Virus record (IMG/VR): IMGVR_UViG_3300045988_181996
Origin: a virus
Length of the DNA: 64,000 nucleotides
Direction: 5' to 3' (one strand)
Below the pieces are notes generated by a model, which worked only from the letters and a program-made list of their open reading frames with translations, did no database searches and was not told the DNA's origin. This document shows, in pieces, positions 1 to 22,553 of the stretch (its first letter is position 1; every line of letters starts with the position of its first letter). Position numbers and translations under genes: made by a program.

Positions 1-37
1 TTTCCTCTAGTTTTCAAAGGCAATAAAACAAATCTAA

Positions 38-1276
38 TTAAGCTAGAATATAGTTGTCTGTTTTTGCAATATTCAACGCTGCATTGAGATCTCTGTCTAT
101 CTTTTCTTGACAAGTATTACAATGATAAACTCTTTGACTAAGTTTCAAATCCTTTCTATAACTTCCACAATTTGAACATGTTTTACTAGAGGGGTAGAAC
201 CTATCTACCAAACGAACTACTATAGAACGCTCTCTCGCCTTTCTAATAAGATGTTCTCTAATAGTGTAAAAAGAACAATTAGCAACATCTTTTGCAAGAT
301 GTTTATTCTTCATCATTCCTTTTACATTCAAGTCCTCGATTGCAATATATTGCGGTTGCTTTTTAACCAATTCTGAGACAAATTTACGAATATGATTAAT
401 ACGAATATTCCTTAGTGAACGATATATCAATTTAATTTGTCTTTCTAACTTAATAATATTCTTTGTTTTATTGTGTTTGTTACATCCATTTATAAGGTAC
501 TTTTTAGACACTTTACGTTGCAATCGTTTTAACCTTTTATTCAAGATACGTACTCTTCTAAAAGTCTTAATATTTGGCACAGTTGTACAATCAGAAACGG
601 TTGCAAGAGTCTTAATACCCAAATCTACCCCAACCCCACTTGTATATTCTGGTAAATCTAATTCTTGAAGTTCTACATCTTCGGTGTAGGACAAGTACCA
701 GTATTTACCATCAAAGGAAATGTTAGCTACTTGTTTCTTACAAGAAAGGTCAAACCCTTCTCGAACAGAACCATACTTCACATCTCCAAGGGTTGGTATT
801 TGGAGTTTCCCATTCTCTTTCAAATAGATACGACTAGGACGCTTTTTATCAGAAGACAGACAACAAGTTACATTGAAATTAGGTTGAACTTTATCAATGC
901 TCCTAAAATTCAATTTTCCTTTATTTCGTCTTCTAATTTTGACCAGTTCTCTAGCGAGAAAATTATAGATAAATGATTGGTTAGGTTTGTAATACCAAGA
1001 CCACTTCTCTTTATCTTCTTCATAATTCTTAGCGACAACAATTTTAGCAAGGTTTAGATAATCAGATTGATTAAGACTATAAATATCTCTATCATAAAAC
1101 TTTGAGTAATAGGTTTTATTCCCAGTTTTACTTAAGATATCATCAAAATCACCCTTATTGTTACGTTTGTCAATATCTACTAAAAGATTCCAATAATTTC
1201 GTGAAACTTTACTGTACCACCACATAAGACTTTCTTGCCTTTTGGTTGGCTTTAACCTAAGCTTCTGACTTCTCAT
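38..1276 (-). CDS. tnpB: IS200/IS605-family TnpB (OrfB) RNA-guided endonuclease-like transposase accessory protein, 412 aa
   Basis: C-terminal zinc-finger 'KTCSNCGSY...YHCNTCQEKIDRDLNAALNIA'. RuvC-like 'YIAIEDLNVKGM'. Overall TnpB/Cas12-ancestor architecture. No tnpA (Y1 transposase) adjacent. Confidence 0.85.
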   Translation of the reverse strand: MRSQKLRLKPTKRQESLMWWYSKVSRNYWNLLVDIDKRNNKGDFDDILSKTGNKTYYSKFYDRDIYSLNQSDYLNLAKIVVAKNYEEDKEKWSWYYKPNQSFIYNFLARELVKIRRRNKGKLNFRSIDKVQPNFNVTCCLSSDKKRPSRIYLKENGKLQIPTLGDVKYGSVREGFDLSCKKQVANISFDGKYWYLSYTEDVELQELDLPEYTSGVGVDLGIKTLATVSDCTTVPNIKTFRRVRILNKRLKRLQRKVSKKYLINGCNKHNKTKNIIKLERQIKLIYRSLRNIRINHIRKFVSELVKKQPQYIAIEDLNVKGMMKNKHLAKDVANCSFYTIREHLIRKARERSIVVRLVDRFYPSSKTCSNCGSYRKDLKLSQRVYHCNTCQEKIDRDLNAALNIAKTDNYILA

Positions 1277-1433
1277 CTCGCTCTACCTTTTCCAAAACAG
1301 CTCTATTTATGTAAGCTGACAGACTCATACCCAATTTATCAGCCATAACTTGTGCTCTTTCTTTATCACTTGGGTATATTTTGAAAGCTGTATGCACCTT
1401 AACACCTTTTTTAGATTTAGGTCTTCCTACCAT
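1257..1433 (-). CDS. small ribbon-helix-helix (CopG/Arc-like) protein, 58 aa (MVGRPKSKKGVKVHTAFKIYPSDKERAQVMADKLGMSLSAYINRAVLEKVERDEKSEA), overlaps tnpB start in another frame
   Basis: Hand translation of the minus strand. AAGGAGA RBS 7 nt upstream of the ATG. RHH-like beta-strand followed by two helices. Absent from the ORF track (<60 aa). Confidence 0.5.
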   Translation of the reverse strand: MVGRPKSKKGVKVHTAFKIYPSDKERAQVMADKLGMSLSAYINRAVLEKVERDEKSEA

Positions 1434-2150
1434 AATTTCATCTCCTTAATAATTCAATAAAATTATTGTAGCATATTGTATAATAAAATGCAACTATTTT
1501 TATCGTGTTATTCAATTTTCAATGTTCTTTTCACACTTTTGACAGTTTCCATTAAGTCGCAACCCTTAACAGCTAGGTCAATTCCTAGACACTTCCATTA
1601 CAGAACGTTTCGCAGACTATACGTCAATCTAACCACTCTAACACAAATTTCCTAAGTAGTCAGACCAAATATTTTTCTTCCGCCATTAGCTTGCGGCTTT
1701 ACTCACTGATAATTTATCAGCTTAGTGTTAATTCACTCCCCCATCAGGGGACAGTCGTTAGAGGTTATCCATATCTCTACTATTTGAGACTTAGGACATT
1801 CCTACCGAAATTTACCCTTGTTCACATTGACTTAGCACTAACGTTTTCTAGCATTCACTATTTTCCTTACTAGACACTAATTAGCTTTTATTTCAGCTTT
1901 ACAACCGTTCGCTCTTGTGTAAACTACTAAGCTGTATCAATATCCCGTTCCTTCTTTCTGCTTTCGCTACCATCACGCTTGGATTTTCATCCTACGTTGT
2001 GGCAAACAGGCTTTAAGGTAACTCCTCGGTTTAACTTTTGTAATGATACACACTCCTCACAGAATGTGCAGGGCTTTCTATTTGTCATTGTTACCTAAAT
2101 ATAGAAAATAAGGAAAAATTTTCATATATTCTCTACATTTGTGTAAACTA

Positions 2151-2357
2151 CTAGTTTACCCTAAAGTGATCAACAAACTCAGGACTAAATTCATCTAACG
2201 AATACGTATTATTCTCAGTTCTAAACACATTATTCTTAAAATCCATAATCGCAATAATATCTTTAGGCTCATATCCTACTTTTCGAAAATAAAGTTTATC
2301 TTTATCACTAAATGACGTATACTCATACTTCTCAATTTCTTCGTTAAAATTTTTCAT
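2151..2357 (-). CDS. hypothetical protein 68 aa, first gene of paralog array
   Basis: ORF co-oriented and tightly spaced with the downstream paralog genes. Confidence 0.4.
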   Translation of the reverse strand: MKNFNEEIEKYEYTSFSDKDKLYFRKVGYEPKDIIAIMDFKNNVFRTENNTYSLDEFSPEFVDHFRVN

Positions 2358-2374
2358 AAAATACCTTTCTTTAA

Positions 2375-2722
2375 TTATAATTTTATTTCATTATCATATT
2401 TTTTATTAATACTTTCATTAAGTTCATTCATTACATCTACAAATTCTTCTTCAGTTAGTTTACTACTTACTTCAGAGGATCTCTTATAATTTAAATCAAG
2501 AGAAGGGTTAAAACAATCATCTACATCACCATCTATATAACGAACATTAGACGTAGAACTATTAATATTATCCATACATAAAGCTTGTCTAAATAATTCT
2601 TGGTTTTTATTTATATTACCAGTCATTTTTGTATTAGCAATATTTTGTCTCATATCATCTAAATCAACCAAATCGTTAACGTCAACATTATTTTGATTAA
2701 ATATATTTTTTGCACGTAACAT
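2375..2722 (-). CDS. paralog-array protein (115 aa) carrying only the shared C-terminal 'EEFVDVMNELN' module
   Basis: C-terminal motif shared with the ORFs at 3780, 4612, 5838 and 7476. Confidence 0.5.
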   Translation of the reverse strand: MLRAKNIFNQNNVDVNDLVDLDDMRQNIANTKMTGNINKNQELFRQALCMDNINSSTSNVRYIDGDVDDCFNPSLDLNYKRSSEVSSKLTEEEFVDVMNELNESINKKYDNEIKL

Positions 2723-2738
2723 AAAATCACCCCTTTAA

Positions 2739-3773
2739 TTACCTTTCTAATCCATCATATTGTTTATTTTCTAACCCAAGCATCGGTTGTGATAATTTAC
2801 GAATAACAGCTTCAAAACGAGCTTGTTCTTCTGATATATCCACATCATCTTTATCTTCAATTTCCATACTAGCAGGTTTAGTTAACTCACGTACTTTTGA
2901 AACTCGTTCAGCATTAAACTCAAAATTAAAATTTTTATATTTACTATCAGATTTAATTGTTTGTAGATCCTCAACATAATTATAAAATTCAGAATTTTCA
3001 TCTTGTAAATATAAATCATAACCGTCAACTTTACCTTTTTTATCACAACTAATTATTTTATATTTTTCATCTTTATAATCTAATTTACGAGAATATAAAT
3101 CATAGTTACCAGTAGTATTATTATATTCATAATCAATATTATAGTCTTTAAATTTTTTTTGTACAAGTGGTTCATCTAAAACAACTTTAGATTCTTTTGC
3201 TCTTTTTTCATTAAATCTTTTATGATTCATAATCCACAGTTCTTTATCCATAGGAGCAAGACCTGTCTCTAATTTATCAATTAATGTAATATCACTATTC
3301 TTATCAATTAATAACGGTAATTTTAATCTATAACCAGGTAACCCACCAATTGTTGAAACATTTACATCATATTTTCGTATATTTTCATTGTCAGGTTGTA
3401 ATACTGAATCGCTAACATAAATATGTTTGCTATTTGTAGTTAAATTAAAACCATAACCATTAAAATTAACATCAGTTTTTTCTTTTTCATAAAAATCATT
3501 TTTTAAAAAACCATTATTATTTTTTATATGTTGCACGGTATTAACATAATCATAAAATATTGAATCACTATCTTCTAATTTAATATTTCGTCCTTTAAAC
3601 TTCCCTTCATCATCTACAGTAATTAAATTATAATATCCACCATATTTATCCATAGTACTAATTGCATATCCATCTAATTTTTTATCATAATCTATTGACA
3701 AATTATATTTTTTAAAATTTTCTTGAATTTTTTCATTATCAAAAAAATTTGATTTATTTCTAAAAATACTCAT
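2739..3773 (-). CDS. paralog-array protein, 344 aa, two copies of the Y-x-Y-D..YKxxxY..CDKKG module
   Basis: Internal duplication 'YDKKLDGYAISTMDKYGGYY' / 'YNNTTGNYDLYSRKLDYKDEKYKIISCDKKG'. C-terminal 'QYDGLER'. Confidence 0.6.
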   Translation of the reverse strand: MSIFRNKSNFFDNEKIQENFKKYNLSIDYDKKLDGYAISTMDKYGGYYNLITVDDEGKFKGRNIKLEDSDSIFYDYVNTVQHIKNNNGFLKNDFYEKEKTDVNFNGYGFNLTTNSKHIYVSDSVLQPDNENIRKYDVNVSTIGGLPGYRLKLPLLIDKNSDITLIDKLETGLAPMDKELWIMNHKRFNEKRAKESKVVLDEPLVQKKFKDYNIDYEYNNTTGNYDLYSRKLDYKDEKYKIISCDKKGKVDGYDLYLQDENSEFYNYVEDLQTIKSDSKYKNFNFEFNAERVSKVRELTKPASMEIEDKDDVDISEEQARFEAVIRKLSQPMLGLENKQYDGLER

Positions 3774-3779
3774 TTCAAA

Positions 3780-4520
3780 CTACCTTTCTAAACTTTCTTC
3801 TTGTTCAACTTTATTAAGCTCATTCATCACAGCAACAAATTCTTCTTCAGTTATTACTTCTTTAACTTCGTACTTATCATACATATCAATAAAATGTTGC
3901 ATATCACTTATTTCATTTATATCATTATTAAACGTATCAATATAATTAGTAATATTTTTAAATTTATGTTTATCATCACCCATATCTAAAGCGAATACAC
4001 AATACATAGCATCTTTATTATCATAAGCATTATATAAATCATATTCACCAAGTTTACCATTTGACGATCTAGCGTAATCATCCATATCCCAATCTATAGG
4101 TAACGTTTCAAAATCCATATTACCATAAGTTTCAACTCCGTAAACTTCAAAATTAACAGTATCCCCAGTATAACTTTGTTCAATTACCATTTTACGTTTG
4201 ATATCTTCATTTTCAGTTGGTAACTCAATTACAGTATTAAAACCATCAAAAGTTACTGTATTATCTTTATATTTTTCATCAGCTTTTAAAGACTGCAAAT
4301 TCACAACATAAGTATAAAAAGGTTCAGACTCATCATTAAAATCTATATGATTATCTATAAAAAACCCGTCTTCCTGACAACTTAAAACAGTATATTCATC
4401 ACCCTTATAATCAGGATATGTAGATATTATATCATAATTACGTGATTTTTCATTATATTCAGCTTTTAAATCAAATTCTTTTAATTTATCTTGTATATAT
4501 TTATCTTCAAAAATACTCAT
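3780..4520 (-). CDS. paralog-array protein, 246 aa
   Basis: 'YNEKSRNYDIISTYPDYKGDEYTVLSCQEDG' N-terminal module. 'KLGEYDLY...EEFVAVMNELNKVEQEESLER' C-terminal module shared with the 5838 ORF. Confidence 0.6.
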   Translation of the reverse strand: MSIFEDKYIQDKLKEFDLKAEYNEKSRNYDIISTYPDYKGDEYTVLSCQEDGFFIDNHIDFNDESEPFYTYVVNLQSLKADEKYKDNTVTFDGFNTVIELPTENEDIKRKMVIEQSYTGDTVNFEVYGVETYGNMDFETLPIDWDMDDYARSSNGKLGEYDLYNAYDNKDAMYCVFALDMGDDKHKFKNITNYIDTFNNDINEISDMQHFIDMYDKYEVKEVITEEEFVAVMNELNKVEQEESLER

Positions 4521-4611
4521 TATTTCACCTCACAAAATATTATATCAATATTATAACATAAAAAACCACATATACTAAATTAAAATAACATAAGATAAGT
4601 AGTTCTTATTA

Positions 4612-5745
4612 TTATCTTTCCATTCCTTGATTTTTTTCATCAATTTCAGATTGTGCTATTTGATATGCCATTTTCGACATTACAGCTCTAAAACGTCTAT
4701 CAATTTCTTCTTCTTCTAAACTCTTTTCACGTTTACCTTGAAAACGTTCATTAACCTCATTAATAGCATTAATAAAATCTTGTTCAGAAGGGTCTAATAA
4801 ATTATTTTCTTCTTTTATATATTCAGCTTGAAATTCCTTATATAACTTATTATCAAGTACATTTTCATCTAATAACATTTTGTTAATATCAATTTCTGAA
4901 ACTCTTTTATTTTTCTTATCAAATAATATCTCAAATTCCCTAGATTTACCATTTTCTTTAAAATAATCAAGTGATTTATTTAGAAAATTAGTATTTGCAT
5001 GCAGCAACCCTTTAATCGGTAGTTTTGTTGAATAAGTCGCAACTTCAGTTGTTTTAATTGTATCTACAGCTACTTTATTATTTAGATCATTAGCATATTC
5101 ATAACGTTCAAGACTAGTCATGTTAAACCATTTTTCACGATTTATAGCTGCATCCCATATTAAAGAACGTTCCATATCAATGCTATACTTTTGTTCATAA
5201 TTTCTACAATTTTCAATATTAAAATTATCTGTATTTATAGTTTTTTCAACATGTTTTTTTTCTTTAAAATATTCATCATTTGATACAACTTCTTTTGATA
5301 TATCATCATATAATTTACTTGCTTCACATGTACGTTGATTTTCTTTTTTTAACATAACATTAATATTTACTTCATTATCACTAATAGAAACTTTATCACA
5401 ATTTAATTCAATTTCATTTCCATTAGTTGAACCAGGTCGGTCAAATACTTTTATTGTACCAATCTTAAAGTCATAAAATGAACCAAATTCCTTAAACATT
5501 TCATCACCTTTAATATTTCGAAATATGTTAACAGACGATATGAACTGTGGAAATTCATTTTCGATTTTATTCTCTAATTTATCAGCATCTTTCTTATAAT
5601 GATAACAAACAACATATTCCTTACCTTCATAATTTGGATATGTTGAAATAAGTTGACCACTACCCCTTACATTGTTATATTCATAACGCAAATGACTTTT
5701 CTCTAATCTTTGCTTTGCTACATCTGACAAATTTAATCTTGCCAT
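4612..5745 (-). CDS. paralog-array protein, 377 aa
   Basis: 'YNNVRGSGQLISTYPNYEGKEYVV' module. Divergent C-terminal '...DFINAINEVNE...NQGMER'. Confidence 0.6.
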   Translation of the reverse strand: MARLNLSDVAKQRLEKSHLRYEYNNVRGSGQLISTYPNYEGKEYVVCYHYKKDADKLENKIENEFPQFISSVNIFRNIKGDEMFKEFGSFYDFKIGTIKVFDRPGSTNGNEIELNCDKVSISDNEVNINVMLKKENQRTCEASKLYDDISKEVVSNDEYFKEKKHVEKTINTDNFNIENCRNYEQKYSIDMERSLIWDAAINREKWFNMTSLERYEYANDLNNKVAVDTIKTTEVATYSTKLPIKGLLHANTNFLNKSLDYFKENGKSREFEILFDKKNKRVSEIDINKMLLDENVLDNKLYKEFQAEYIKEENNLLDPSEQDFINAINEVNERFQGKREKSLEEEEIDRRFRAVMSKMAYQIAQSEIDEKNQGMER

Positions 5746-5837
5746 TATTATTCACCACCTATTTTATATAAGATTATTATAACACAAAAAACCACATATC
5801 CCAAATTAAATTAACATGAGATATGCAGTTTACATTG

Positions 5838-7472
5838 TTATCGTTCTAATCCTTTATCTTGTTCTTTATTAGATACTAAATTAACAGCATTTATAAACTC
5901 TTGTTTGTTCTTAAGTTCACTAATATTATCCATATCCTCAATTAAATCATCAATATATGTAGTTACATTTTGATAATCAGTTTTATCTTTTAAAAAGTAT
6001 ACATCATAATCAGTTTTTGTTGTGTGATCATGATTTTTAAATTGAGAATATTCACCCAATTTACCACTTTTACTACCGTCAAACAATTTATTTCCATACA
6101 TACTAGCAATACCATTAAATGAACTTATTTCCTCATCACTTGGATATTCTAAAACATATTTATTCTGAACATCTTCCATCCCGTTCCATGTATATTCGAT
6201 TACTAATTTACGATTGAAATCTTTATTGTTTAAATCAATTTCCATCTTATCACAATAACCGCCATATAAGTTCAACTCAAAATCTTTATATTTCTCATTT
6301 GATTTCAAAGCCTGAAGGTTTTGAACATGACCATAGAAATTAGTATAATCACTCATTAAATCTAAATCCATATCATATGTATTAGTTTCAACAATTCCAT
6401 TTTTATCACATGATATTATTTTATATTCTTCACCTTTATAATCAGGGCAAGTTGAAATTATATCATAATTATCATTTTCTTCATTATAAACAGCTTTTAT
6501 ATTATTTTCATTAAACTCGTTTATCACACGAGATAGATTTACATACCCAATTTCTCTTTCACGACCTAATGTATTCATATATGCTTCATATTGTTTTTTT
6601 TGATTTTCAGGTTCACGTAATTGTTTTATATCTTCTTTAAACCTATAATCAGTTATTTCTTCATATAAATTATTATCAATTAATCCTAATTCTTTTAATT
6701 CATTTGCAACAAAGTAATCAGAATGAAAATTATTATCTTTAGTTAAACGGTTTACCGATTTCATTATATCACTTTTCTCATCACATTTAGTTATTAATTT
6801 ATCTAAATATTCATTAAACTTATTACTATCCTCAACGTCTTCAGTTATTTCAAACGTTTCTATAAAATTCACACCATAAACTTCAAAATCTTCATCATAA
6901 GTAAAATTCTTTATTGAATCATGATAATCATCAATTTGTTTTTCTAATATAACATCTTTCATATTCTCACTCTTAAACCCGTTAAATAACATTCTATCAA
7001 CATCTTGAACACAACCCCACTCATTAGTTAAACGCATTTTAACAGGTGATTTTTTTAAATCATTTCCATCAGTAATTAACTGAATAGTTCGTTCAAAACC
7101 AGTTTTATCCTCATCTTTTAATGTGATATTAATACTACCACCAAGATGCATCATCCAATTCATATTATCACTATATTTAGGATCTAATTCCAAAGAACGA
7201 ACTTTATTCATAGCTGGAATTACAGTATCAATATTATAATCAAAATGACCTAAAAACGATTCACCATATATACTGTCATTTTGAATTTCATAAGTTTGAA
7301 TATCTTTTCCATCAACATTAGAATAAACGCCAAAATTATCAAATTTAGTTAATTTCATAAAATAACCATTATCATCTAATTTTTTTAAAGTTTCTTCACT
7401 AATTATAGAATCAGTTAACTCACGCATTTTATTAATATTTTCGTTTGAATTAAACTTATTTTCACTACTCAT
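5838..7472 (-). CDS. paralog-array protein, 544 aa, unique ~300 aa N-terminal extension fused to shared modules
   Basis: 'YNEENDNYDIISTCPDYKGEEYKIISCDKNG' and 'KLGEYSQF...QEFINAVNLVSNKEQDKGLER'. Confidence 0.6.
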   Translation of the reverse strand: MSSENKFNSNENINKMRELTDSIISEETLKKLDDNGYFMKLTKFDNFGVYSNVDGKDIQTYEIQNDSIYGESFLGHFDYNIDTVIPAMNKVRSLELDPKYSDNMNWMMHLGGSINITLKDEDKTGFERTIQLITDGNDLKKSPVKMRLTNEWGCVQDVDRMLFNGFKSENMKDVILEKQIDDYHDSIKNFTYDEDFEVYGVNFIETFEITEDVEDSNKFNEYLDKLITKCDEKSDIMKSVNRLTKDNNFHSDYFVANELKELGLIDNNLYEEITDYRFKEDIKQLREPENQKKQYEAYMNTLGREREIGYVNLSRVINEFNENNIKAVYNEENDNYDIISTCPDYKGEEYKIISCDKNGIVETNTYDMDLDLMSDYTNFYGHVQNLQALKSNEKYKDFELNLYGGYCDKMEIDLNNKDFNRKLVIEYTWNGMEDVQNKYVLEYPSDEEISSFNGIASMYGNKLFDGSKSGKLGEYSQFKNHDHTTKTDYDVYFLKDKTDYQNVTTYIDDLIEDMDNISELKNKQEFINAVNLVSNKEQDKGLER

Positions 7473-7475
7473 AAT

Positions 7476-8183
7476 CTACAACTCCATCCCATTATCTTTT
7501 TCTTTATTAGTTACCGAATTAACAGCATTTATAAACTCTTGTTCTTTAAGTTTTTTATGTTTTTCAGCATCTAACATACGCTTTTCCTCCAGCAATACAT
7601 TTTTTTCATTTAAATATTCATAAGCGTTATCCATGTAATATTTAACATAATCATGTTCCATCTCCCAAACTTCTTTATCTAATAACTTTAATTCATAATC
7701 ATCAAAAGCACGTTCTAAGTCAGGATAATCAGTTAAATCAACCCCGCCACGCTTAATAGTTTCATTAACCTCGTTATAAACTTCACCAAAGTTATTACCT
7801 ATTGAATTAAGTTCTTCGTAATACACACCGTTAAAAGCTTCTAATAAGTCACCACGGTGAGTATATACATGGTGTCTTGCTGGATCCGTTTCTAAAGATT
7901 CACGTAATCCTAAATATTTCTCATTATCTAACTTTTCAAGAGTAGTTAAGAAATTCGTAAAGTCTTTTCCACCACGACCATTACCAAGTAAATAACTACG
8001 TCTGTCACTAACAACCATAGTGTATTTATGGTCAACTTGTGGTGAGAAGTTTCTACCAAACTCAGCTATCTCACCACTCTTATCAAGTTCTTCTAACTTA
8101 ATTTTATCATCAACATCACTTTTAGCATAAAATTCTCCGTAATATTGAAGTTTATCTAATTGTTCTCGAATATCATTTTTCAT
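7476..8183 (-). CDS. paralog-array protein, 235 aa
   Basis: C-terminal 'QEFINAVNSVTNKEKDNGMEL' module. Different N-terminal domain. Confidence 0.55.
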   Translation of the reverse strand: MKNDIREQLDKLQYYGEFYAKSDVDDKIKLEELDKSGEIAEFGRNFSPQVDHKYTMVVSDRRSYLLGNGRGGKDFTNFLTTLEKLDNEKYLGLRESLETDPARHHVYTHRGDLLEAFNGVYYEELNSIGNNFGEVYNEVNETIKRGGVDLTDYPDLERAFDDYELKLLDKEVWEMEHDYVKYYMDNAYEYLNEKNVLLEEKRMLDAEKHKKLKEQEFINAVNSVTNKEKDNGMEL

Positions 8184-8192
8184 AACTCACCT

Positions 8193-9503
8193 CTAATGCT
8201 CTATTGACCAATCACGTGTTAATTTACGTTTTTCAACATTATCATTTATTTCAGCAATTTGCTTTGTAAAATCTTCTTCATCAAACGTGTTTTCCTGTGT
8301 AATTTTCTTAGCTTTCTTTTCAATTTCCTCAAAGTCAATTTCTTCGGTAAATTCTTCTTCAATAACTTCACCTTCTTTTACTAAGTTGTCCTCAATAGTT
8401 TCTTCAAACTCTTTACGCAATCGTTCTTCACGCTCATCTTCTTCATAAAAATCAAACGGATTTCTGTTATTAACTTTAGCTGTTACCGAAGCTAATTCTT
8501 CCTGAGTTCTTCTTAAATTATCTTCTAATACAGAAGTATCATCTTTATAATAAATAGCATCATCTATTTGTGCTTTTATCATTTTCTCACTTGCTTGTAA
8601 GACCGATTTAAAGTTTTCTTCAATTCGTTGTTTAGGAGTTACTAAGAAATATTTATCTTCAATTTCTTCTTTTCTGTTCATTAATTCAGCTTTACGCTTT
8701 TCTAACTGAGCAAGTTCATTACCAACACGACTTAATTCATCAATATCACTCATAGTTTTAAACATATCACCACGAGAAAGTCTATCACCATCTCTTAATG
8801 TTTGCCAAAATACAGCAACCCCAGTACCAAATGCACCACCATGTTTTGCAATAAACATATTTTCTGATTCGTTTAATATTTCATCATACGATTTACCTTG
8901 GTTATAATTATTTATTACACTTTGTCGTTCTTTATGATTTAACGTACTATAAAACTTTGCAAATTCTGTTCTATCGTTTTCGATATATTCCGACTCAACA
9001 TTTTTATTTGTTTGTTTTTTTATGTCTTTTTCTTTTGGTTTAGTTGTTTTTGTTTGTGGTAGTTCTTCTTTTGTTTGATTACTTTGTAATTGTTGTTTCA
9101 TGATTTCGTTTTCTTTACGTAATCTTTCTAACTCTAATTTTACACTATTTCTTTGTGATTTACTATAATTAGGTGTACTTATTCGACTACCTTGTTTATC
9201 TAAATCACTTTTTCCTATAAATAAATTCTTAAAATCCTTTGGTGATTTTTGTGCAAATTCACGACCTTTACGGTAATATTCAAGGAATTTTTTTACCGTT
9301 TTACTTTCGCTTTGTTTTGCATAATCTTTTAATTTATCTTTTGAATTTTTTACAGTATTGATACCTGCTTTAACAGTCGTTTTAGAAATATCATATAACA
9401 TATCTGATAAAGTAGGACCAAATTGTTCACGTCTTAAATCACGAGCTATTTTATAAGAGTTATAACTAGCTTTAACTTCTTTAATATATGCCAATTTCAT
9501 CAT
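8193..9503 (-). CDS. hypothetical coiled-coil protein, 436 aa, acidic C-terminus
   Basis: Long ORF heading the array. No recognisable catalytic motif. Confidence 0.5.
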   Translation of the reverse strand: MMKLAYIKEVKASYNSYKIARDLRREQFGPTLSDMLYDISKTTVKAGINTVKNSKDKLKDYAKQSESKTVKKFLEYYRKGREFAQKSPKDFKNLFIGKSDLDKQGSRISTPNYSKSQRNSVKLELERLRKENEIMKQQLQSNQTKEELPQTKTTKPKEKDIKKQTNKNVESEYIENDRTEFAKFYSTLNHKERQSVINNYNQGKSYDEILNESENMFIAKHGGAFGTGVAVFWQTLRDGDRLSRGDMFKTMSDIDELSRVGNELAQLEKRKAELMNRKEEIEDKYFLVTPKQRIEENFKSVLQASEKMIKAQIDDAIYYKDDTSVLEDNLRRTQEELASVTAKVNNRNPFDFYEEDEREERLRKEFEETIEDNLVKEGEVIEEEFTEEIDFEEIEKKAKKITQENTFDEEDFTKQIAEINDNVEKRKLTRDWSIEH

Positions 9504-9600: not shown

Positions 9601-9809
9601 AAGAAAGAATTAATTTAATCTGCATAATCATAGCATACCTACGCACTAGCAGTTAATGTGGAAAATAATTACATTCCACCTTAAATTTATTATAACATAT
9701 TTTTTCAAAAATAACAAATAAAAAAAAAGGTGAATGTATCCTCCAGAAATAACTCACCTACGTAACAAATAATTATTAAATTATCTATTAATTATATCAT
9801 ATTTAATCA

Positions 9810-11547: not shown

Positions 11548-11814
11548 TTAAACCTTCAAATTAATTGATTCTAAAAATTCATAATCTTCTTTACTTAATT
11601 TAATTACTTCACCATTATCATTAACTAATGTCGCATTTTCATAAAAAGAATCATATTCTAATTTAAAAATTTGAGGTTTATATTTACTTATATTTTCATT
11701 TACATATTTATATTCTTTTGGAAGTTTATCAATTACAACTGCTACATAAAACATACTCAAATGTGTATATTTTATGATCCTATCATTAAATTTTTGAAAT
11801 TCTTTCTGCTTCAA
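11548..11814 (-). CDS. hypothetical 88-aa protein upstream of flotillin (possible short NfeD-like partner)
   Basis: Position immediately 5' of the SPFH gene. Weak similarity only. Confidence 0.35.
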   Translation of the reverse strand: MKQKEFQKFNDRIIKYTHLSMFYVAVVIDKLPKEYKYVNENISKYKPQIFKLEYDSFYENATLVNDNGEVIKLSKEDYEFLESINLKV

Positions 11815-11923
11815 CCCGTCTGATTTTGTCGTAAAAATGAATAATCATCATTACTGACTACTTTCATTTGATGTGACGATCCACAGACTTAACTTTCCGT
11901 ATAACCCACGGTAGTGACAATAT

Positions 11924-13102
11924 TTATACTGTAGTCAAAACAGTGTAGTTTTGACATTGTTCTAAGTTTAGAGATGCGTTTATATCTCGGTCGTGAACAA
12001 CGCTACATTTTGGACATGTCCAAGTACGTTCTTTTAATTTTAACTCTGTGTTTTTATACCCACAACAAGAACATAACTTGCTAGAAGGGTAGAAACGTGG
12101 AGCTAAACGTAGTTCAATCCCTAGTTTTTCACATTGGTTAGTTAAGAACAATCTTGACATATACCATTGTGCATTGGAAATTGTTTTAGATAAATGTTTA
12201 TTTTTCATTAGACTTTTTATATTCAAGTCTTCAATAGTTATAAAACTTGGTTTTTGTTTCATAATTGATTGTAGAGCTTTTTGATTATAATCAGTTCTAA
12301 TTCTTGTTATTCTTTCATAAAGTTTATTAACAAGTCTTTGATTTTTATTTAAATTTTTACATTCTCTCAAAGGGCGATTCCAATTAAAACTTTTTAATTG
12401 TCCTTTTTTCTTTCCTGTCTTGTAATAAACTTTATTAATCATGTTGTGTTCATATTTACGTGACAATGCACGTTGTTTTTGTTTTAACTTTTTCTCAAGT
12501 TTTATAACTCGTTTTGATTTGTTAATAGACGGTATCGTTTCATTTTTTGTAATGAATTGGTTTTTTATTCCAAAATCAATACCTATACCATGTGTAGAGG
12601 TAACGGTTTGTTTGATATTCACTTCATCAGTTAAACAAGAAACAAAGTAACGTCCATTTTTCATAGAAACAGTGACAGATTTAACATTATTCGGTATATA
12701 ACCAAATTCTTTTAATCGAACCCATTTTAGTTTAGGTAAAAAAATACGATGTCTTTCAACTTTTATTGTACCAATTAAATAGAAACTATTATTTTTTGAT
12801 TTCTTTTTAAAATTTGGTTTTCCTTTTTTACCATTTAAATAATCCCACATTGCTTTATGACCGTTCATTATTGCTTGTTTTATAGCTTTACTAGGTGACT
12901 TAATTAACCAATCAGGTCTATTTGGATCGTTATTTATCATCTTTGAATAATCATATCCTGAGATAATAGGTTGATTATTTTCTAAACGTTTAAAATTATA
13001 ACTGATAAATTGATTATAAATGTATCTAGTATTACCAAACGTTTGATGTATTAAATTAATTTGTTCTTTATTGGGTTTGATTTCTGTCTTGTAAGCTTTC
13101 AT
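11924..13102 (-). CDS. tnpB: second, divergent IS200/IS605-family TnpB, 392 aa
   Basis: 'RFYPSSKLCSCCGYKNTELKLKERTWTCPKCSVVHDRDINASLNL' zinc finger. 'ITIEDLNIKSLMKNKHLSK' RuvC-II-like. No tnpA. Confidence 0.85.
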   Translation of the reverse strand: MKAYKTEIKPNKEQINLIHQTFGNTRYIYNQFISYNFKRLENNQPIISGYDYSKMINNDPNRPDWLIKSPSKAIKQAIMNGHKAMWDYLNGKKGKPNFKKKSKNNSFYLIGTIKVERHRIFLPKLKWVRLKEFGYIPNNVKSVTVSMKNGRYFVSCLTDEVNIKQTVTSTHGIGIDFGIKNQFITKNETIPSINKSKRVIKLEKKLKQKQRALSRKYEHNMINKVYYKTGKKKGQLKSFNWNRPLRECKNLNKNQRLVNKLYERITRIRTDYNQKALQSIMKQKPSFITIEDLNIKSLMKNKHLSKTISNAQWYMSRLFLTNQCEKLGIELRLAPRFYPSSKLCSCCGYKNTELKLKERTWTCPKCSVVHDRDINASLNLEQCQNYTVLTTV

Positions 13103-17071: not shown

Positions 17072-18073
17072 ATGGAAAAGAAAAAATCAGTTAAATTATC
17101 TGATATTTCAATAGATCAAATTAAAAGAAGTAAAAAAATAAAGAAAACTCCTTTAATTGAAGAAAAAATAAATGAAGAAACTCAAACACCTACTACTCAA
17201 GCTGACAATGAAGAACTTGGTAAAGCTGGAGAATATGTACCAGTCGAAGACGATGCTATAATTGAGATGTTTGAAACTAACAATGAAGAAAGTTTTGAAG
17301 AAATAGAACATGCAGTTATAGAAGAAACTAAAACACCTAACAATGAAATAGTTAACCCTATGGAAAGTATAGAACTTATTGATGATATTACAGATGAAGA
17401 TATTAATGCAACAAATCAACCTAAAAATAGTTTCTTTAAAGAAATAATTAATGAGTTCAAATCATATTCATTAACATTTAAACTATTTACGTTTCTTTCA
17501 ATCATTCTTGTTGGAATATTAATTGCAATTAGTGTTTATTTTTACAAGAAAACACCGAAAAATGTTGAACAACAAGAACAACCTAAACAAGAAGTTAAAC
17601 AAGAAGTTAAACAAGAAGAAAAAACAGAAGATGATAGTAAATCAGAAAAAGAAAAACTTCAATCCAAACTTGAAGATAGTGTTAAATCAATTAACACACC
17701 TACTAAAGTTGCAACAGAAGATTTATTTGGTGGATATATATTAGGTAGTACTACTTATTATCCTGATGACCCACAAAAACTTTATATTGATTTCACTATC
17801 AAACCACCTAAAGAAAAACAACCACAAGCTGATGATGAAACTGCTCTGAAAATTCTAAAAACTTTAAAATCGACTTTACCTAAAATAAACGAAACTATTG
17901 AAGTTAAAGATAAATCTAAAGTTACTATGGAAATTTATAAACAAAAATCAGAATATCAAACTATTCTATTATATGACGGTAAACCATTTGCTTATGTTTC
18001 AACTGATAAAGACCTTGTTTCAACTAACCATGTTACTGGTGAATATGTCTCAAAAGTTGCTAAAGACGCTTAA
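17072..18073 (+). CDS. membrane-anchored protein, acidic N-terminus, single TM, extracytoplasmic C-domain, 333 aa
   Basis: TM 'FTFLSIILVGILIAISVYFY'. KQEVKQE repeats. Confidence 0.5.
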   Translation: MEKKKSVKLSDISIDQIKRSKKIKKTPLIEEKINEETQTPTTQADNEELGKAGEYVPVEDDAIIEMFETNNEESFEEIEHAVIEETKTPNNEIVNPMESIELIDDITDEDINATNQPKNSFFKEIINEFKSYSLTFKLFTFLSIILVGILIAISVYFYKKTPKNVEQQEQPKQEVKQEVKQEEKTEDDSKSEKEKLQSKLEDSVKSINTPTKVATEDLFGGYILGSTTYYPDDPQKLYIDFTIKPPKEKQPQADDETALKILKTLKSTLPKINETIEVKDKSKVTMEIYKQKSEYQTILLYDGKPFAYVSTDKDLVSTNHVTGEYVSKVAKDA

Positions 18074-18210
18074 TAATAAAAAGTACTACAAACACACTTG
18101 TAGTACTCTTTTTTTATATTAAAAAAGTCTCCAGAAAAACTCGTCTGTATTAATTTTTCGTGGTATCTTAGTCTCCACAAAAACTTATCCGAAGAATTTT
18201 ATCAAATTTT

Positions 18211-18320
18211 TTACCTGTGGTATTTTATATAAAAAATTACTACCTACGGTATTTTATTTAAAAATTTATTACATCACGTATTTTATTCAAAAAAATAACC
18301 TACAAATGTATTTTCATCAT
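18211..18320. repeat. four ~26-bp direct repeats ACCTRYGGTATTTTATWTAAAAAWTT
   Basis: Seen in sequence, in the non-coding 18.1-19.25 kb region. Confidence 0.7.
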
Positions 18321-18429
18321 ACACCCCTAACATACTTTGTATTTTTATTAGCAAGTCTATTACTTTGTATTATCATCATAATAATAAATTATACTAGTAT
18401 AATTATATTACTCATCAGGATATACTAAC

Positions 18430-18542
18430 TCGCTTAGAATATTATCATTCTAGGATTTACTTAATCAGTATTTAATATTATTATTCTAGGTAATATCTAA
18501 CTATCTAAGAATATTACCCTTCTAGGTAATACTTAATTAGGA
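18430..18542. repeat. three ~35-bp direct repeats (..AATATTAYYCTTCTAGGTAATACTTAA..)
   Basis: Seen in sequence. Confidence 0.7.
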
Positions 18543-19155
18543 AAAAATATACTGTACTATTTTTTACTCAAATCGCAAGGAATGTTGCTTCCTTATTTCA
18601 ATTTCTAATTAAGTAGAAATTATAAAACCCTATTAAAAACTTGAAGCGGCAAGATCATCAAAAAAAAAATAAAAAGATAAAAACATTTAAAAAAAATAAT
18701 GACTTAATATATCAAAAAATCTCCTGTTATTAAAATTTACCGATGCAATTTTATTAATTCGATCTTTTAAGTGAACCCCTACCTTTAAAATTCTCACAAC
18801 TAAATTTACCTTTAAAATAACTAATTAAAACATCATCAAAATAACATTTTAGCAAACTCCCTCACAAAAAAAATACAACTAAATAAAAAAATTCCATTCA
18901 AATAAAATTTTTAAGACGCATTTAAACACCCTTCTCGCTTTGATGAAATACTTTCTGGTATAATTGGTCCAAAAAATATTTTACGACGATTCTAGGGGTA
19001 TAGAAATAGCTCCTAGAGGGTGATTCATTATTTTTGTATATAGTATATTTCGGATAATGACATTTTAACAAAATTATTTAATAAACGTCTACATTTGTCG
19101 TTATCTATTTAACCTTCTTATCCTAATTGGTAATAATATATTTATCGCTGCAAAA

Positions 19156-19210
19156 CGTAATTCTACGAATTACTTAAAAATAAGTTAGGCATAGCCTAAA
19201 ACCCTTTAAC
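19156..19210 (+). promoter_or_regulatory. hairpin motif copy 1: CGTAATTCTACGAATTAC + TTAGGCATAGCCTAA + ACCCTTTAAC upstream of the 19252 gene
   Basis: Two palindromes plus a conserved ACCCTTTAA box. Recurs five times before plus-strand genes. Confidence 0.6.
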
Positions 19211-19251
19211 TCGAAAATATTAATTAAATAAATGTTTGGAGGGTTACCGCT

Positions 19252-19659
19252 ATGAGTTCTACTAAACCATGGATTAAATTCACGCAAGATTATAATAAAG
19301 GTAAATATTCTTACTACAAAAAATCTTATAAAAACCACGACTACTACGTTGTAATTAACCACTTATTCGCACTATGTGGTTATGTCGAAGACACTCTATC
19401 AAGACCTCAAGAACGTTATTTCTTTGATCCATATGAATACGACTTAGATGTTCACGGTGGTGTTACTTATAATGGTGAAGCTTATTTCAATAAAAAAGAT
19501 AAACGCTTATTTATCGGATTTGATTGTGCTCACGCTTGTGATAACGTACCTAAACTATCTTACATTGGTGAAAATCTACCATGGCGAAATGAAAAATATG
19601 TTGAACGTCAATGTAGAAAACTTATTAATCAACTAATAAAATTAAAAGGAGAGCTTTAA
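19252..19659 (+). CDS. hypothetical protein 135 aa (conserved His/Cys/Asp cluster 'HGGVTY..GFDCAHACD')
   Basis: GGAGGG RBS. First gene of the plus-strand cluster. Confidence 0.55.
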   Translation: MSSTKPWIKFTQDYNKGKYSYYKKSYKNHDYYVVINHLFALCGYVEDTLSRPQERYFFDPYEYDLDVHGGVTYNGEAYFNKKDKRLFIGFDCAHACDNVPKLSYIGENLPWRNEKYVERQCRKLINQLIKLKGEL

Positions 19660-19660
19660 T

Positions 19661-19846
19661 ATGACTACTACATACTACTTTATTCAACACCCTACTGAAA
19701 ACCTTTATCGTGAAGACTATACTCTATTTACTTCAATTGATAAATTAAAAAAAGCTAATTCAATTGAAGAAGACTCGAAAATATTCTCAGTTGAAATTAA
19801 TAACAAATATCAAATTATTGGTACTCCTACTGAAATAACTATTTAA
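19661..19846 (+). CDS. hypothetical 61 aa
   Basis: AAAGGAGAG RBS. Translationally coupled to the preceding gene. Confidence 0.45.
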   Translation: MTTTYYFIQHPTENLYREDYTLFTSIDKLKKANSIEEDSKIFSVEINNKYQIIGTPTEITI

Positions 19847-19860
19847 AAGGAGATTTAATC

Positions 19861-20115
19861 ATGAAAACATTTATGGACATAATTATCTACTTACTTGGTT
19901 CAATTATTATTCTTTTTGTGTTTGGATTCCCTTTATTTGTTGCTGCACACTACGGCTCACTAAAAGAAAAAATTAAAAAAATCAATGAAGAAAGTAAAAA
20001 ACTTGATGACGAAATCGCTAAAATTGATTCTTTCACTCGCTCTATTAAAGGTGCTACAAACACTGACTATATCAAGGAACAACAAAAAATGCATTTCCCT
20101 GATAAATTTAATTAA
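19861..20115 (+). CDS. small membrane protein 84 aa
   Basis: AAAGGAGA RBS. TM 'IIIYLLGSIIILFVFGFPLFVAA'. Confidence 0.5.
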   Translation: MKTFMDIIIYLLGSIIILFVFGFPLFVAAHYGSLKEKIKKINEESKKLDDEIAKIDSFTRSIKGATNTDYIKEQQKMHFPDKFN

Positions 20116-20138
20116 AATTAAAAAAAGGAGATTTTATT

Positions 20139-20246
20139 ATGCTTGAATTTATTAAAGCACTCGCTGGAGGTTTTATGTTACTCTTACTAATATTCATGGG
20201 TGGTTATGCCGCTGGTGGATTCTGGGAAGATAACGATAAAAAATAA
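20139..20246 (+). CDS. 35-aa hydrophobic peptide (MLEFIKALAGGFMLLLLIFMGGYAAGGFWEDNDKK)
   Basis: AAAAGGAGA RBS 8 nt upstream. Not in the ORF track. Confidence 0.3.
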   Translation: MLEFIKALAGGFMLLLLIFMGGYAAGGFWEDNDKK

Positions 20247-20404
20247 AAAATTATGAAAAAATTATTAAACATTTACTTAAAACGCTTTGTTAAATACTTT
20301 GTTGGAAGAATTCTTTACATAACTAACTTTAAGTTATTAGCTAAATTCTTCCAACTATTTAATATCTACAAACTATTTAAAATTCTACACAGGAGGTAAT
20401 TAAT

Positions 20405-20869
20405 ATGAGTAATACAATCAAACTATCTACAACTCACCAAACTCACGATTTCCTTAGTCGTTTGAATGAACAACAAAAACTTGAACATGAAATCTATCAG
20501 TTTGTTAGATCTATTGAAATGAAAAACCATACATTAGATAGATTCCGTTCAAAGTTTATTGAGCTTTATTGGAATAATAATTTCTACACACCTAATAAAA
20601 ATTCTTACTTGAAATTATTTGTTACTCTTATTAATCACCTTCAAAATGCTGAACTTGAGTGTCATATTAAAGACATTTCGTGGTTTAGTGATGTTATTAA
20701 ACAAGCTAAACTTAACCCTATTAATTACTCATCTAATTTCGATGAATATTATGAATTTACTTTCCTTGACTATAATAAAAGTTTATTCAACGAATCAACT
20801 AAAAACATCACATTAAAACTAACTTTAAGAGTTATTGATAACCACCTATATGGAATTATTTTACAATAA
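20405..20869 (+). CDS. hypothetical protein 154 aa
   Basis: CAGGAGG RBS. Confidence 0.55.
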   Translation: MSNTIKLSTTHQTHDFLSRLNEQQKLEHEIYQFVRSIEMKNHTLDRFRSKFIELYWNNNFYTPNKNSYLKLFVTLINHLQNAELECHIKDISWFSDVIKQAKLNPINYSSNFDEYYEFTFLDYNKSLFNESTKNITLKLTLRVIDNHLYGIILQ

Positions 20870-20888
20870 ACTAAAGGAGAAATAACAA

Positions 20889-21068
20889 TGGCTAAATTTA
20901 TTAAAATTGATGACAAAATTATTAATGTTGACCATATAGCTTTCATTGTTGAAAGTGAAAACATATATGATGAAAAATACACGAAATTTTTCTTAACTCA
21001 TGGTTTCGTTAATACTAAATTAAAATTAGATGAAGTCTATAAATTAATCGAAGATTGTTCTAGTTAAT
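20889..21068 (+). CDS. hypothetical 59 aa (MAKFIKIDDKIINVDHIAF...)
   Basis: AAAGGAGA RBS. Hand-translated. Below the ORF-track cut-off. Confidence 0.4.
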
Positions 21069-21096
21069 ACTTAACTCTTAATCTTTCGCTTATAAT

Positions 21097-21151
21097 CGTA
21101 ATTCTACGAATTACTCAAAAACCAATTAGGCTTCGCCTAATACCCCTTAAC
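21097..21151 (+). promoter_or_regulatory. hairpin motif copy 2: CGTAATTCTACGAATTAC + TTAGGCTTCGCCTAA + TACCCCTTAAC
   Basis: Near-identical to copy 1. Confidence 0.6.
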
Positions 21152-21187
21152 TTTTGAAATTTATTTTATTAATTGGAGGTTTTATAC

Positions 21188-21700
21188 ATGACTACTAAAT
21201 ACTTTATTGACGGTTCTTTCCAAACTATTAATGATCACGAAATCTGCGGATTTGCTTGTGCTGTTATAAACCCTGACGGTTCTATCGAAGAACTTAAAGG
21301 TGCTAAAGAATTCGAAAACCATTCTAATAACATCACTAGTGAATTACAAGCTTGTTACGTTGCTTTATATCACGCTATTACTAATAATATTAAAGATATC
21401 GAAATCTATCACGACTTACAAGGTACTAGTGCTTGGGCTAACGGTACTTGGAAAGCTAAAAAAGATGAAACTAAAAAATATGCTCAATACGTTAACGCTA
21501 TGAAACAACAATACGATTTAAATATCAAATTCATTAAAGTTGCTGGTCACTCTGGTGTTAAATACAATGATTTAGCTGACTCTTTAGCTGACCAAGCTGT
21601 AAAAGAATATGCTATGAAAAACAACATCTTACCAACTTTTGAATTTAACGAAGCTGATGAAGTTGAACAACCTATAGCTATGTTCAACCCATTAGCTTAA
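21188..21700 (+). CDS. RNase H (RNase HI-like fold), ~170 aa
   Basis: DEDD catalytic set aligned to E. coli RnhA: 'YFIDGS', 'SELQACYVAL', 'IYHDLQ', 'VAGHSGVKYNDLADSLA'. GGAGG RBS 8 nt before the 21188 ATG (the ORF track start at 21173 is less likely). Confidence 0.8.
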   Translation: MTTKYFIDGSFQTINDHEICGFACAVINPDGSIEELKGAKEFENHSNNITSELQACYVALYHAITNNIKDIEIYHDLQGTSAWANGTWKAKKDETKKYAQYVNAMKQQYDLNIKFIKVAGHSGVKYNDLADSLADQAVKEYAMKNNILPTFEFNEADEVEQPIAMFNPLA

Positions 21701-21718
21701 TATTAATAATTTATATCA

Positions 21719-21744
21719 AGGGGTTCTTATGAACCCCTTATTTT
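21719..21744 (+). terminator. rho-independent terminator GGGGTTCttatGAACCCC + T-run
   Basis: 7-bp GC stem followed by TTATTTT. Confidence 0.7.
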
Positions 21745-21754
21745 GGAGTTTATT

Positions 21755-22156
21755 ATGTACATCATACTACCTTTTAACGCAAATCATAACTCACACGCTG
21801 TAGAGGTTTATTCTAAAATTAAGGATATTCCTTTCCCAACCAACGTACCTGTACGTTGTTATCGTCTTAATAAAAAAATCTATAATGAGTTAGAGCTTAA
21901 TTATTACAATATCCACAAGGATTACTCTCACTCAGTTACTCTACCACGTTTTCAAATTGCTTATGAAGTACCTATCTATAAACACGAACTTCATAAAAAG
22001 TTTAACGTTTCTAAAACTGAACTTATCGCTATTTACGAAAATCACGTAAAAGAACTTAATTATCTATCAGATAACACTATTCTCTTACTTTGGAAACTTA
22101 AAATGCATCCTGAAATAATCGCTAATAGTAAATTAGCTCATTTGCTTAAATATTAA
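21755..22156 (+). CDS. hypothetical 133 aa
   Basis: GGAG 6 nt before the ATG at 21755 (the ORF track uses a TTG at 21743). Confidence 0.5.
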   Translation: MYIILPFNANHNSHAVEVYSKIKDIPFPTNVPVRCYRLNKKIYNELELNYYNIHKDYSHSVTLPRFQIAYEVPIYKHELHKKFNVSKTELIAIYENHVKELNYLSDNTILLLWKLKMHPEIIANSKLAHLLKY

Positions 22157-22166
22157 GGAGTTTATT

Positions 22167-22553
22167 ATGAATTACATTCTTAGAAATTACCCAAATAACA
22201 ATATTCGTAAACTACTTTGTCCTTATCAACATTCAAAACTTAAAAAAATAAACTATACTTACTACAACCGTTTACGTGAGTTTATTACTTCTAAAGATTT
22301 TAAATGTATATTTTATCTATCTATTAAAAACAACGAAATCATCGAACTTGATGTTGTAACTCACCACCAAGCACAAGTTCTAAACTTGTTTAATAACATT
22401 AAACAGGATTTAAAACCTATTAAAAAAGGTACTTGGTACGTTACTAAACTTGAATATGGTTATTTAGTTTTCCCTAAACTAAACATACCTTTCAACAACA
22501 ACCAATGCTTCTATTTTGAATGTAACTCATTCTACGATTCACTTATATTCTAG
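22167..22553 (+). CDS. hypothetical 128 aa
   Basis: AAGGAG RBS. Confidence 0.5.
   Translation: MNYILRNYPNNNIRKLLCPYQHSKLKKINYTYYNRLREFITSKDFKCIFYLSIKNNEIIELDVVTHHQAQVLNLFNNIKQDLKPIKKGTWYVTKLEYGYLVFPKLNIPFNNNQCFYFECNSFYDSLIF

Follow-up and report, generated by a model that had tools for sequence, protein, structure and literature searches.

The internal proteins of bacteriophage T4 enter the next cell along with the DNA and counter host defence. In T4-like phages the internal-protein locus (IPI/II/III) is hypervariable, and its small, dispensable proteins share only a short capsid-targeting peptide (PMC3012670). In Xanthomonas and Stenotrophomonas, effectors of type IV secretion systems (T4SSs) named X-Tfes join unrelated N-terminal parts to one conserved C-terminal element, XVIPCD, and the coupling protein reads this tag (PMC8740702, PMC6759196); such effectors, with a variable head and a constant C-terminus, are recognised by VirD4 in Xanthomonadaceae (PMC8740702). 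Plasmid-encoded proteins are also co-transferred by conjugative T4SSs, often via C-terminal signals (PMC8406263, PMC11288057). Here we describe an array of genes whose products carry a constant C-terminal tail on variable heads. It is located at positions 2151-9503 of a 64,000-nucleotide stretch of DNA (IMG/VR virus record IMGVR_UViG_3300045988_181996), which is called the window in this text. The gene family of this array is real and new. It is an orphan restricted to the lineage of elements that carries it, which belongs to an oral megaplasmid class only newly recognised, and its constant tail on variable heads is an unusual combination.

The array is similar to the X-Tfes in having a conserved C-terminal element on unrelated heads, encoded together with a T4SS coupling protein. 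However, XVIPCD is a folded domain of ~120 amino acids (aa) from Gram-negative killing systems, whose effectors have immunity genes, while the tag of the array is a helix of 25-30 aa. Unlike the X-Tfes, the array is known from sequence alone, belongs to a Gram-positive host, and shows no toxin domains or immunity partners; no homology of the tail to XVIPCD was found in Pfam, PDB sequences or profiles. With the T4 locus the array shares no homology but an analogy of logic only, and the T4 tag is N-terminal and cleaved, with delivery by capsid packaging (PMC3012670). Co-transferred plasmid proteins and the products of leading-region genes are, like the array proteins, element-encoded, cytoplasmic, acidic and diverse; they aid establishment, and C-terminal signals are common among them (PMC8406263, PMC11288057, PMC11541004). 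The known cases, however, are Gram-negative; each is a single gene from a known family (PsiB, SSB, ArdA, ParB), and they have no common conserved tag. We tentatively propose that the array may supply interchangeable effector or anti-defence proteins, whose shared tail would dock them on the conjugation machinery.

A constant tail on variable heads

Eight open reading frames (ORFs) were found in 2151-9503, all on the minus strand and each with a Shine-Dalgarno-like sequence. None of them has a membrane-spanning hydrophobic segment (maximum Kyte-Doolittle 19-mer score 0.78), and all the proteins are acidic with isoelectric points (pI) of 4.1-5.7, the net charge being -36 in E246 (pI 4.1, 246 aa) and -46 in C544. 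The original prediction for this span was of seven co-oriented cytoplasmic proteins. Co-orientation and the absence of hydrophobic segments were confirmed, but the ORFs number eight, and two of them (A436 and H68) are not members of the family. The tally for the window is five full members, one remnant (G115), one conserved gene at the head of the locus (A436) and one disrupted neighbour (H68).

The C-terminal tail is the sole feature common to all members. Its consensus, aligned over all of them, is (E/Q)(E/Q)xF(I/V)xAVNxVxNKEQDKG(L/M)E(R/M)-COOH, with a length of ~25-30 aa. A hidden Markov model (HMM) of the tail was compared with all six-frame ORFs of the window and matched exactly six (235, 544, 377, 246, 344 and 115 aa; E 8e-16 to 5e-9), the next best having E=0.14; the tail that had been predicted by eye was thus recovered. 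In nine related loci the tail was likewise found in array genes only among the six-frame ORFs. Apart from the first copy where two are in tandem, the tail always forms the extreme C-terminus, and residue -3 is invariably hydrophobic (L, M or I). The last 25 residues have a net charge of -6 to +1. The tail is predicted as a C-terminal amphipathic helix, with a predicted local distance difference test score (pLDDT) of 50-68, below that of the body, as would be expected if the peptide is exposed. At the DNA level, identity is 89-91% between tails of one subtype and 65-70% between subtypes (repeat families D1, D3). By tail alignment and HMM, the tail-coding DNA is at 7476-7571 in B235, 5838-5936 in C544, 4612-4719 and 4714-4809 in D377, 3780-3878 in E246, 2739-2837 in F344 and 2375-2473 in G115, all on the minus strand. 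A word-indexed search with the tail profile returned short tail-bearing fragments only, and no tail fused to a known domain was found.

At least five head types without mutual alignment were distinguished with hhalign, and the commonest of them holds a second conserved unit, the N-module. An N-terminal unit of ~35 aa had been proposed; BLASTP and hhalign showed that the unit is real but that its length is ~90 aa. Four of the six tail-bearing ORFs have it, at aa 1-95 of E246 and D377, aa 311-405 of C544, and twice in F344 (aa 1-95 and 196-290), where the proposed duplication therefore holds. Pairs of N-modules gave BLASTP E values of 1e-8 to 1e-18, and hhalign probability was 93-99.9% for most. 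The weak hhalign pairs, N_C-N_F1 (32%) and N_F1-N_D (1.8%), are both joined only via N_E and N_F2. Two heads known only in related elements, those of R293 and R320, also joined the N-module group by hhalign. The head of B235 had been read by eye as a divergent N-module, and hhalign rejected this (probability 0.9%). As N-modules, the N-extension of C544 and the heads of R296 and R352 were unsupported by hhalign, and profile-profile comparison rejected A436 and the 234-aa neighbour as N-module carriers.

A separate 'KLGEY' module, which had also been suggested, was not recovered. All-against-all BLASTP showed that aa 318-544 of C544 are homologous to the entire E246 (33% identity, E=9e-37), and KLGEY is part of this one stretch of ~230 aa common to the two proteins. 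Further mosaic proteins with differing combinations of heads are P0025, P0064, P0069, P0071, P0084, P0086 and P0087. Among them, P0064 and P0069 consist of the Bh head with the C-terminal half of C544, P0025 of a D-type N-module with the second module of F, and P0086 of the Bh head with the double tail of D.

The genes of the span are arranged on the minus strand as follows. A436 (8193..9503) encodes a conserved coiled-coil protein at the head of the locus, in which N-module and tail are both absent; its C-terminus looked like the tail by eye, and the tail HMM gave no match. It had no family match in the libraries scanned (Pfam, PHROGs, NCBIfam, PADLOC). The first array gene is B235 (7476..8183), in which the 'Bh' head (aa 1-205) is fused straight to the tail (tail HMM E=8e-15). 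B235 is 91% identical to aa 1-210 of a 543-aa protein of the related locus L004 and diverges after that, so that it appears to be a shortened derivative of the Bh-type genes (299-728 aa) found in other elements; its mosaic relatives are P0064, P0069, P0084, P0086 and P0087. C544 (5838..7472) has an N-extension of 310 aa, followed by the N-module, a beta-rich region including KLGEY, and the tail, and has 52 homologues, which are metagenomic. D377 (4612..5745) has the N-module, a unique middle part and two tandem tails (aa 313-344 and 343-377). In E246 (3780..4520) a full member is reduced to its minimum of N-module, KLGEY region and tail, and F344 (2739..3773) has its two N-modules and a variant tail. 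G115 (2375..2722) is a 5'-truncated remnant of a 308-359-aa member. It corresponds to the last ~100 residues of the full member, retains the tail (tail HMM E=1e-10), and aligns to aa 211-308 of a 308-aa protein of L004 and also to P0076. H68 (2151..2357), outside the family, corresponds to codons 1-67 of a conserved gene for 234 aa and is 94% identical to aa 1-67 of the 234-aa protein of L004.

Searches for known families were negative for the members and several relatives. No Pfam match reached the cut-off (best E 0.013), PHROGs and NCBIfam gave nothing above threshold, and these three libraries showed no enzymatic or sensor domain in the members; no module proved to be a housekeeping family. 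PADLOC was run on ten family and neighbour proteins without a significant match, and its single SspF hit (E=0.013, 12 bits) is at chance level. The family profile had no match among PDB sequences. When the N-module profile was searched against 1.84 billion representative proteins, 20 clusters only were returned, all from the same mosaic family, so there are no distant annotated relatives to lend a function. The AlphaFold2 model of E246 is confident (pLDDT 83.8, predicted template modelling score 0.76) and consists of an alpha-beta3-alpha N-module, a continuing beta-sheet, helices and then the tail helix with lower confidence; taken by itself, the N-module in this model has an alpha-beta3-alpha-beta fold. 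Foldseek gave no match with E <0.02 for the E246 model against PDB and the viral models of BFVD, and a resemblance to chaperone-like folds is therefore a lead only. The N-extension of C544 (aa 1-310) was poorly modelled (pLDDT <50).

Arrays in related elements

Five arrays were compared, those of the window and of loci L001, L007, L004 and L008; L006 is the source contig of the window, a scaffold of 170 kb (sample SAMEA2738175). The window, L001/L007, L004 and L008 have a common frame of (Band_7), A436, array, 234-aa gene and Phage_lysozyme2/CHAP hydrolase. Band_7/flotillin is missing at the equivalent position in L004, which rules it out as an obligatory partner. Similar arrays are thus present in related elements, and their copy number varies over the five, as had been suggested for checking. 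Intact tail-bearing genes number eight in L001/L007, three in L004 (plus two fragments), five in L008 (plus fragments) and five in the window (plus the G115 remnant). The gene types follow one another in a collinear series of Bh, R296, R320, R352, C, R293, D, E, F, G. Differences between arrays are losses or deletions, in-frame fusions and frameshifted pieces.

The flanking genes are 96-98% identical at the amino acid level in related elements, with a ratio of nonsynonymous to synonymous substitution (dN/dS) of 0.09-0.15; for the pair of window and L001 the flanking values are 96-97% and 0.09-0.13. The D, E and F orthologues of the window and L001 have 73-77% identity and dN/dS of 0.38-0.54 (D377, 73% and 0.38; F344, 0.54). 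With 3-8 intact genes per element, fusions, fragments and raised dN/dS, the idea of a modular and rapidly diversifying tandem array was well founded. Unequal recombination between repeated tails and N-modules would produce such a pattern, and the sequences look like what a tandem family generates when it undergoes unequal recombination under weak or diversifying selection. Phase variation was considered for a split F-type gene in L001 and rejected, as the split is a single G missing in comparison with L002 and L007 and not a repeat tract.

A436 is 96-98% identical in L001, L004 and L007. In L008 the homologue (3165-4556, 463 aa) is 54% identical, while the array modules downstream are 60-90% identical to the reference modules and the signal peptidase gene upstream is closely similar by eye. 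A436 therefore occurs as at least two alleles that have diverged deeply from one another, on backbones that are otherwise alike. Beyond the hydrolase gene, in L001 (15228-16875, minus strand) and L004 (14426-16565), there are 3-4 tandem ORFs of 161-192 aa in opposite orientation, followed by an ORF of 1265 aa; neither the small ORFs nor the 1265-aa ORF match any family. The small ORFs may be a further variable set of paralogues on the same element.

The carrier element and the surroundings of the array

The carrier is a giant, low-GC, uncultured, conjugative plasmid-like element of Gram-positive oral bacteria, and the array lies within its conjugation-gene region, at a fixed site that is prone to recombination. 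GC content in the window is 23-33%. A VirD4-type coupling protein of 1260 aa is encoded at 41684-45466 (Pfam T4SS-DNA_transf and TraG-D_C, NCBIfam CD1115 family), and ~370 aa of it, past the TraG-D_C domain, have no assigned domain. A short MobL/MobP2-type relaxase (285 aa) and the start of a ClpB-like double-AAA+ ATPase (765 aa, 30916-33213) overlap, the pair spanning 30916-34048 on the minus strand. Such coupling of an unfoldase to a relaxase is unusual and could bear on the unfolding of substrates for transfer. A type IA topoisomerase and a SecA paralogue are also in the window. A CHAP/Phage_lysozyme2 cell-wall hydrolase just downstream of the array and an S26 signal peptidase were found in related loci and in the source contig. 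Two ORFs, of 708 aa (59141-61267) and 1226 aa (55461-59141), occupy the places expected for a VirB4-type ATPase and a VirB6-type channel protein. Because no Pfam or NCBIfam model matched either of them, the transfer apparatus itself seems to be highly divergent.

The surface-protein genes are at 38295-41573, 45607-47739, 48738-51074 and 51193-54903, a set that includes the SecA paralogue. Besides an antigen I/II-type adhesin (AgI_II_C2, Adhesin_P1_N), they encode an LPxTG protein in which SSSPR-51 repeats occur and a protein of 1236 aa whose C-terminal part is a matrixin-like (M10-like) metalloprotease. This surface kit points to an oral streptococcus-like host. In addition, a block of small genes on the plus strand (17072-25999) is opposite in orientation to the transfer genes. 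It contains single-stranded DNA-binding (SSB) domain proteins at 23311-23742 and 25688-25999, a third OB-like ORF without match, and an RNase H-like RVT_3 protein at 21173-21700, and looks like an establishment or leading-region-type block.

A DNA search of PLSDB with the array gave no match, and A436 had none when scanned against GTDB, with one genome for each species, and against IMG/VR. Protein homologues came from metagenome assemblies only, on contigs up to 250 kb, one of them an NCBI metagenome assembly. These features are similar to those of the Inocle family, for which VirB4/VirD4, an S26 peptidase, LPXTG proteins, insertion sequence (IS) elements, hypervariable regions and absence from isolates were reported; Inocle-delta has an average of 245 kb and 24% GC, and the marker gene InoC has ~454 aa and PF13814 (PMC12340149). 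The carrier shares with Inocles the oral metagenome origin, the lack of isolate genomes among those searched, low GC, contigs to ~250 kb, richness in IS elements (two TnpB elements), VirD4, S26 peptidase, LPXTG proteins and hypervariable regions. It differs in that this array was not described there (PMC12340149). InoC (PF13814) is absent from the 64-kb window, so the carrier can be taken only as a likely Inocle element.

The original prediction placed the array next to a TnpB element. The element does adjoin the array, but it is an incidental insertion in the neighbouring 234-aa gene and is not part of the array system. It occupies 1..2156 of the window (minus strand), with its 3' end beyond the window, and 17345-19659 of L006, where its size is 2,315 bp. 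The insertion splits the 234-aa gene, in which it lies in sense orientation, and the gene resumes past it in L006. The alignment of H68 with intact copies breaks at ~2157, and the boundaries are ambiguous within a shared GGT. On the minus strand the insertion has a non-coding 5' part (1440-2156, 717 nt), which is GC-richer and strongly structured (minimum free energy z=-4.74), a ribbon-helix-helix/NikA-like ORF of 58 aa (1257-1433) and TnpB (38-1276), and by analogy this layout appears to be that of an IStron. A group I/II intron or a known large RNA in the 717-nt region was rejected, as there was no Rfam match even at E≤1. A second TnpB gene is located at 11924-13102, and the RAGATH-18 RNA directly downstream of it (11803-11887, minus strand; 69 bits, E=9e-12) is presumably part of the guide-RNA end of that second transposon.

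Between the array genes, an intergenic element of ~91 nt is repeated on the minus strand. One copy (4521..4611), with the extended -10-like TGTTATAAT, is upstream of E246, a second, 80% identical copy (5746-5837) is upstream of D377, and a related piece (9688-9727) is upstream of A436 (repeat families D2, D4, D9). Promoter-like sites are at 5804-5776, 4548-4519 and 9717-9689, and the count of such sites in the region is no higher than chance. Upstream of A436 on the minus strand, a terminator-like hairpin (9849-9825) is followed by a near-consensus promoter, TTGACT-18-TATAAT with TG (9820-9791). The leader then has a further promoter-like site (9717-9689) and another terminator-like hairpin (9594-9567). 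This set of hairpins and promoters could be an attenuator controlling the array operon. Integron-type gene cassettes were rejected, as no attC-like palindromes or recurrent inverted repeats were present at gene ends and no integrase was among the scanned window proteins.

Possible roles of the array

In the role that we tentatively favour, the tail would be an address tag docking every member on one common partner, and the likeliest partner would be the type IV coupling protein of the element itself, which is unusually long (1260 aa). The variable heads would be passed to the conjugation channel or work beside it, and could act in new recipients to aid establishment or to counter defence, with turnover driven by conflict with diverse recipients. 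This agrees with the context of coupling protein, relaxase and hydrolase, with a constant tail on unrelated heads, and with conflict-like evolution and acidity. A more specific form, which we regard as doubtful, is that the array is the first protein-substrate repertoire of a Gram-positive conjugative T4SS. A dedicated C-terminal signal of ~25 aa, made up of the amphipathic helix and KEQDKG(L/M)E(R/M)-COOH, would be read by the oversized coupling protein and the proteins injected with the DNA to disarm recipient defences, which would make the locus a conjugative counterpart of the T4 internal-protein locus.

Several results weigh against docking and transfer. The tail is neutral to acidic, while the generic C-terminal signals that worked in a study of the F plasmid were mostly positively charged (PMC11288057). 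Among orthologues, pairwise identity is 0.83 in the tail and 0.77-0.88 in the body, so the tail is not more conserved. The relaxase and other element proteins in the window lack it, and ~24 kb separate the array from the relaxase gene. The sole fold lead is to secretion chaperones and not to effectors. The dN/dS values are elevated yet <1 and pseudogenes are frequent, which relaxed constraint fits as well as an arms race. We know of no Gram-positive conjugative system with such an effector repertoire.

The array proteins could instead stay in the donor as adaptors or chaperones, which we consider rather unlikely. Heads with a type III secretion chaperone/YbjN-like alpha/beta fold would bind different clients, either T4SS substrates or the element's large surface proteins exported by its SecA2-like ATPase, and the tail would tether the adaptors to one intracellular hub, which could be A436, the coupling protein or the ClpB-like AAA+ unfoldase (30916-33213). 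Acidity is typical of such chaperones, A436 is always at the head of the array, and the element encodes both the ClpB-like double-AAA ATPase and the SecA paralogue. However, the scores to class I type III secretion chaperones and YbjN/DR_1245-type proteins are marginal and there is no sequence similarity. Those proteins are single domains of ~130-150 aa with an alpha-beta3-alpha-beta2-alpha fold, while the array members are multi-module proteins of 235-728 aa, two to five times larger; the element is of Gram-positive type (LPXTG, AgI/II proteins) with no type III secretion genes seen, and such fast turnover would be unexpected if the clients are conserved. The same strong acidity of E246 and C544 would also fit proteins for establishment or anti-defence, such as acidic DNA mimics, which are simply expressed from the incoming element and not translocated, the tail being an oligomerisation or stability motif. 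Hypervariability between near-identical elements, a conjugative carrier and the known clustering of anti-defence genes on plasmids (PMC11541004) are in agreement, but this is unlikely: neither ArdA, KlcA, PsiB, anti-CRISPR nor any other anti-defence family of PHROGs, Pfam or NCBIfam was matched, the recognisable SSB genes are in the different, oppositely oriented block at 17-26 kb, and the extreme C-terminal position of the motif is left unexplained. It is less probable still that the array is a decaying tandem family of little current function, in which recent duplication and gene conversion keep tails and modules alive. The arrays of the window (G115), L004 and L008 include remnants and frameshifted fragments, dN/dS is 3-5-fold above that of the flanks, and the 89-91% identity of tail DNA within subtypes suggests gene conversion. 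On the other side, dN/dS is well under 1, long intact ORFs with ribosome-binding sites are found in dozens of independent metagenome assemblies, the motif is retained in the protein even at 65-70% DNA identity, and the gene types keep a collinear order from one element to the next.

The immunity or defence label of the original prediction was not supported, with no match in Pfam, NCBIfam, PHROGs or PADLOC and no toxin among the neighbours tested. Arrays of esaG/DUF600 genes next to type VII secretion system toxins are tandem, recombining sets of cytoplasmic paralogues with variable copy number, and in this respect the present array resembles them. Yet multiple diversified copies of immunity proteins against polymorphic toxins, or of antitoxin-like proteins, are an improbable explanation. 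No immunity family (Imm*, SUKH, DUF600) was matched in Pfam or NCBIfam, no type VII secretion system is in the window, and with these libraries no LXG, WXG100, Rhs, nuclease, deaminase or other toxin or trafficking domain was found, either in the neighbours tested within the window (larger ORFs) or in those tested within ±10 kb of related loci (flanking genes in L001 and L004). Large mosaics, up to 544-728 aa, with a common C-terminal tag are not a trait of immunity proteins, and the family is confined to this element lineage. An anti-phage defence island on a plasmid is highly improbable: only the general pattern of a variable locus beside a mobile element speaks for it, whereas PADLOC had no significant match to the ten proteins, no enzymatic or sensor domain was present, and the adjoining TnpB is an insertion in the neighbouring gene.

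Giant, plasmid-like oral elements are common in people, and nearly all their genes are without assigned function. The array locus is among the fastest-changing parts of its element, amid the transfer genes, and accounts for one class of 'hypervariable region' at which short-read assemblies of such elements break. Whatever the function, the tail HMM is a specific marker of the locus. At present the locus is moderately interesting, and proof that the tail signals transfer would make it considerably more so. Should the tail serve as a tag for secretion or docking, Gram-positive conjugation would have its first defined signal for protein transfer, the array would provide ready candidates for effectors of establishment or anti-defence, and the tail would be a portable tag to deliver proteins between Gram-positive cells.

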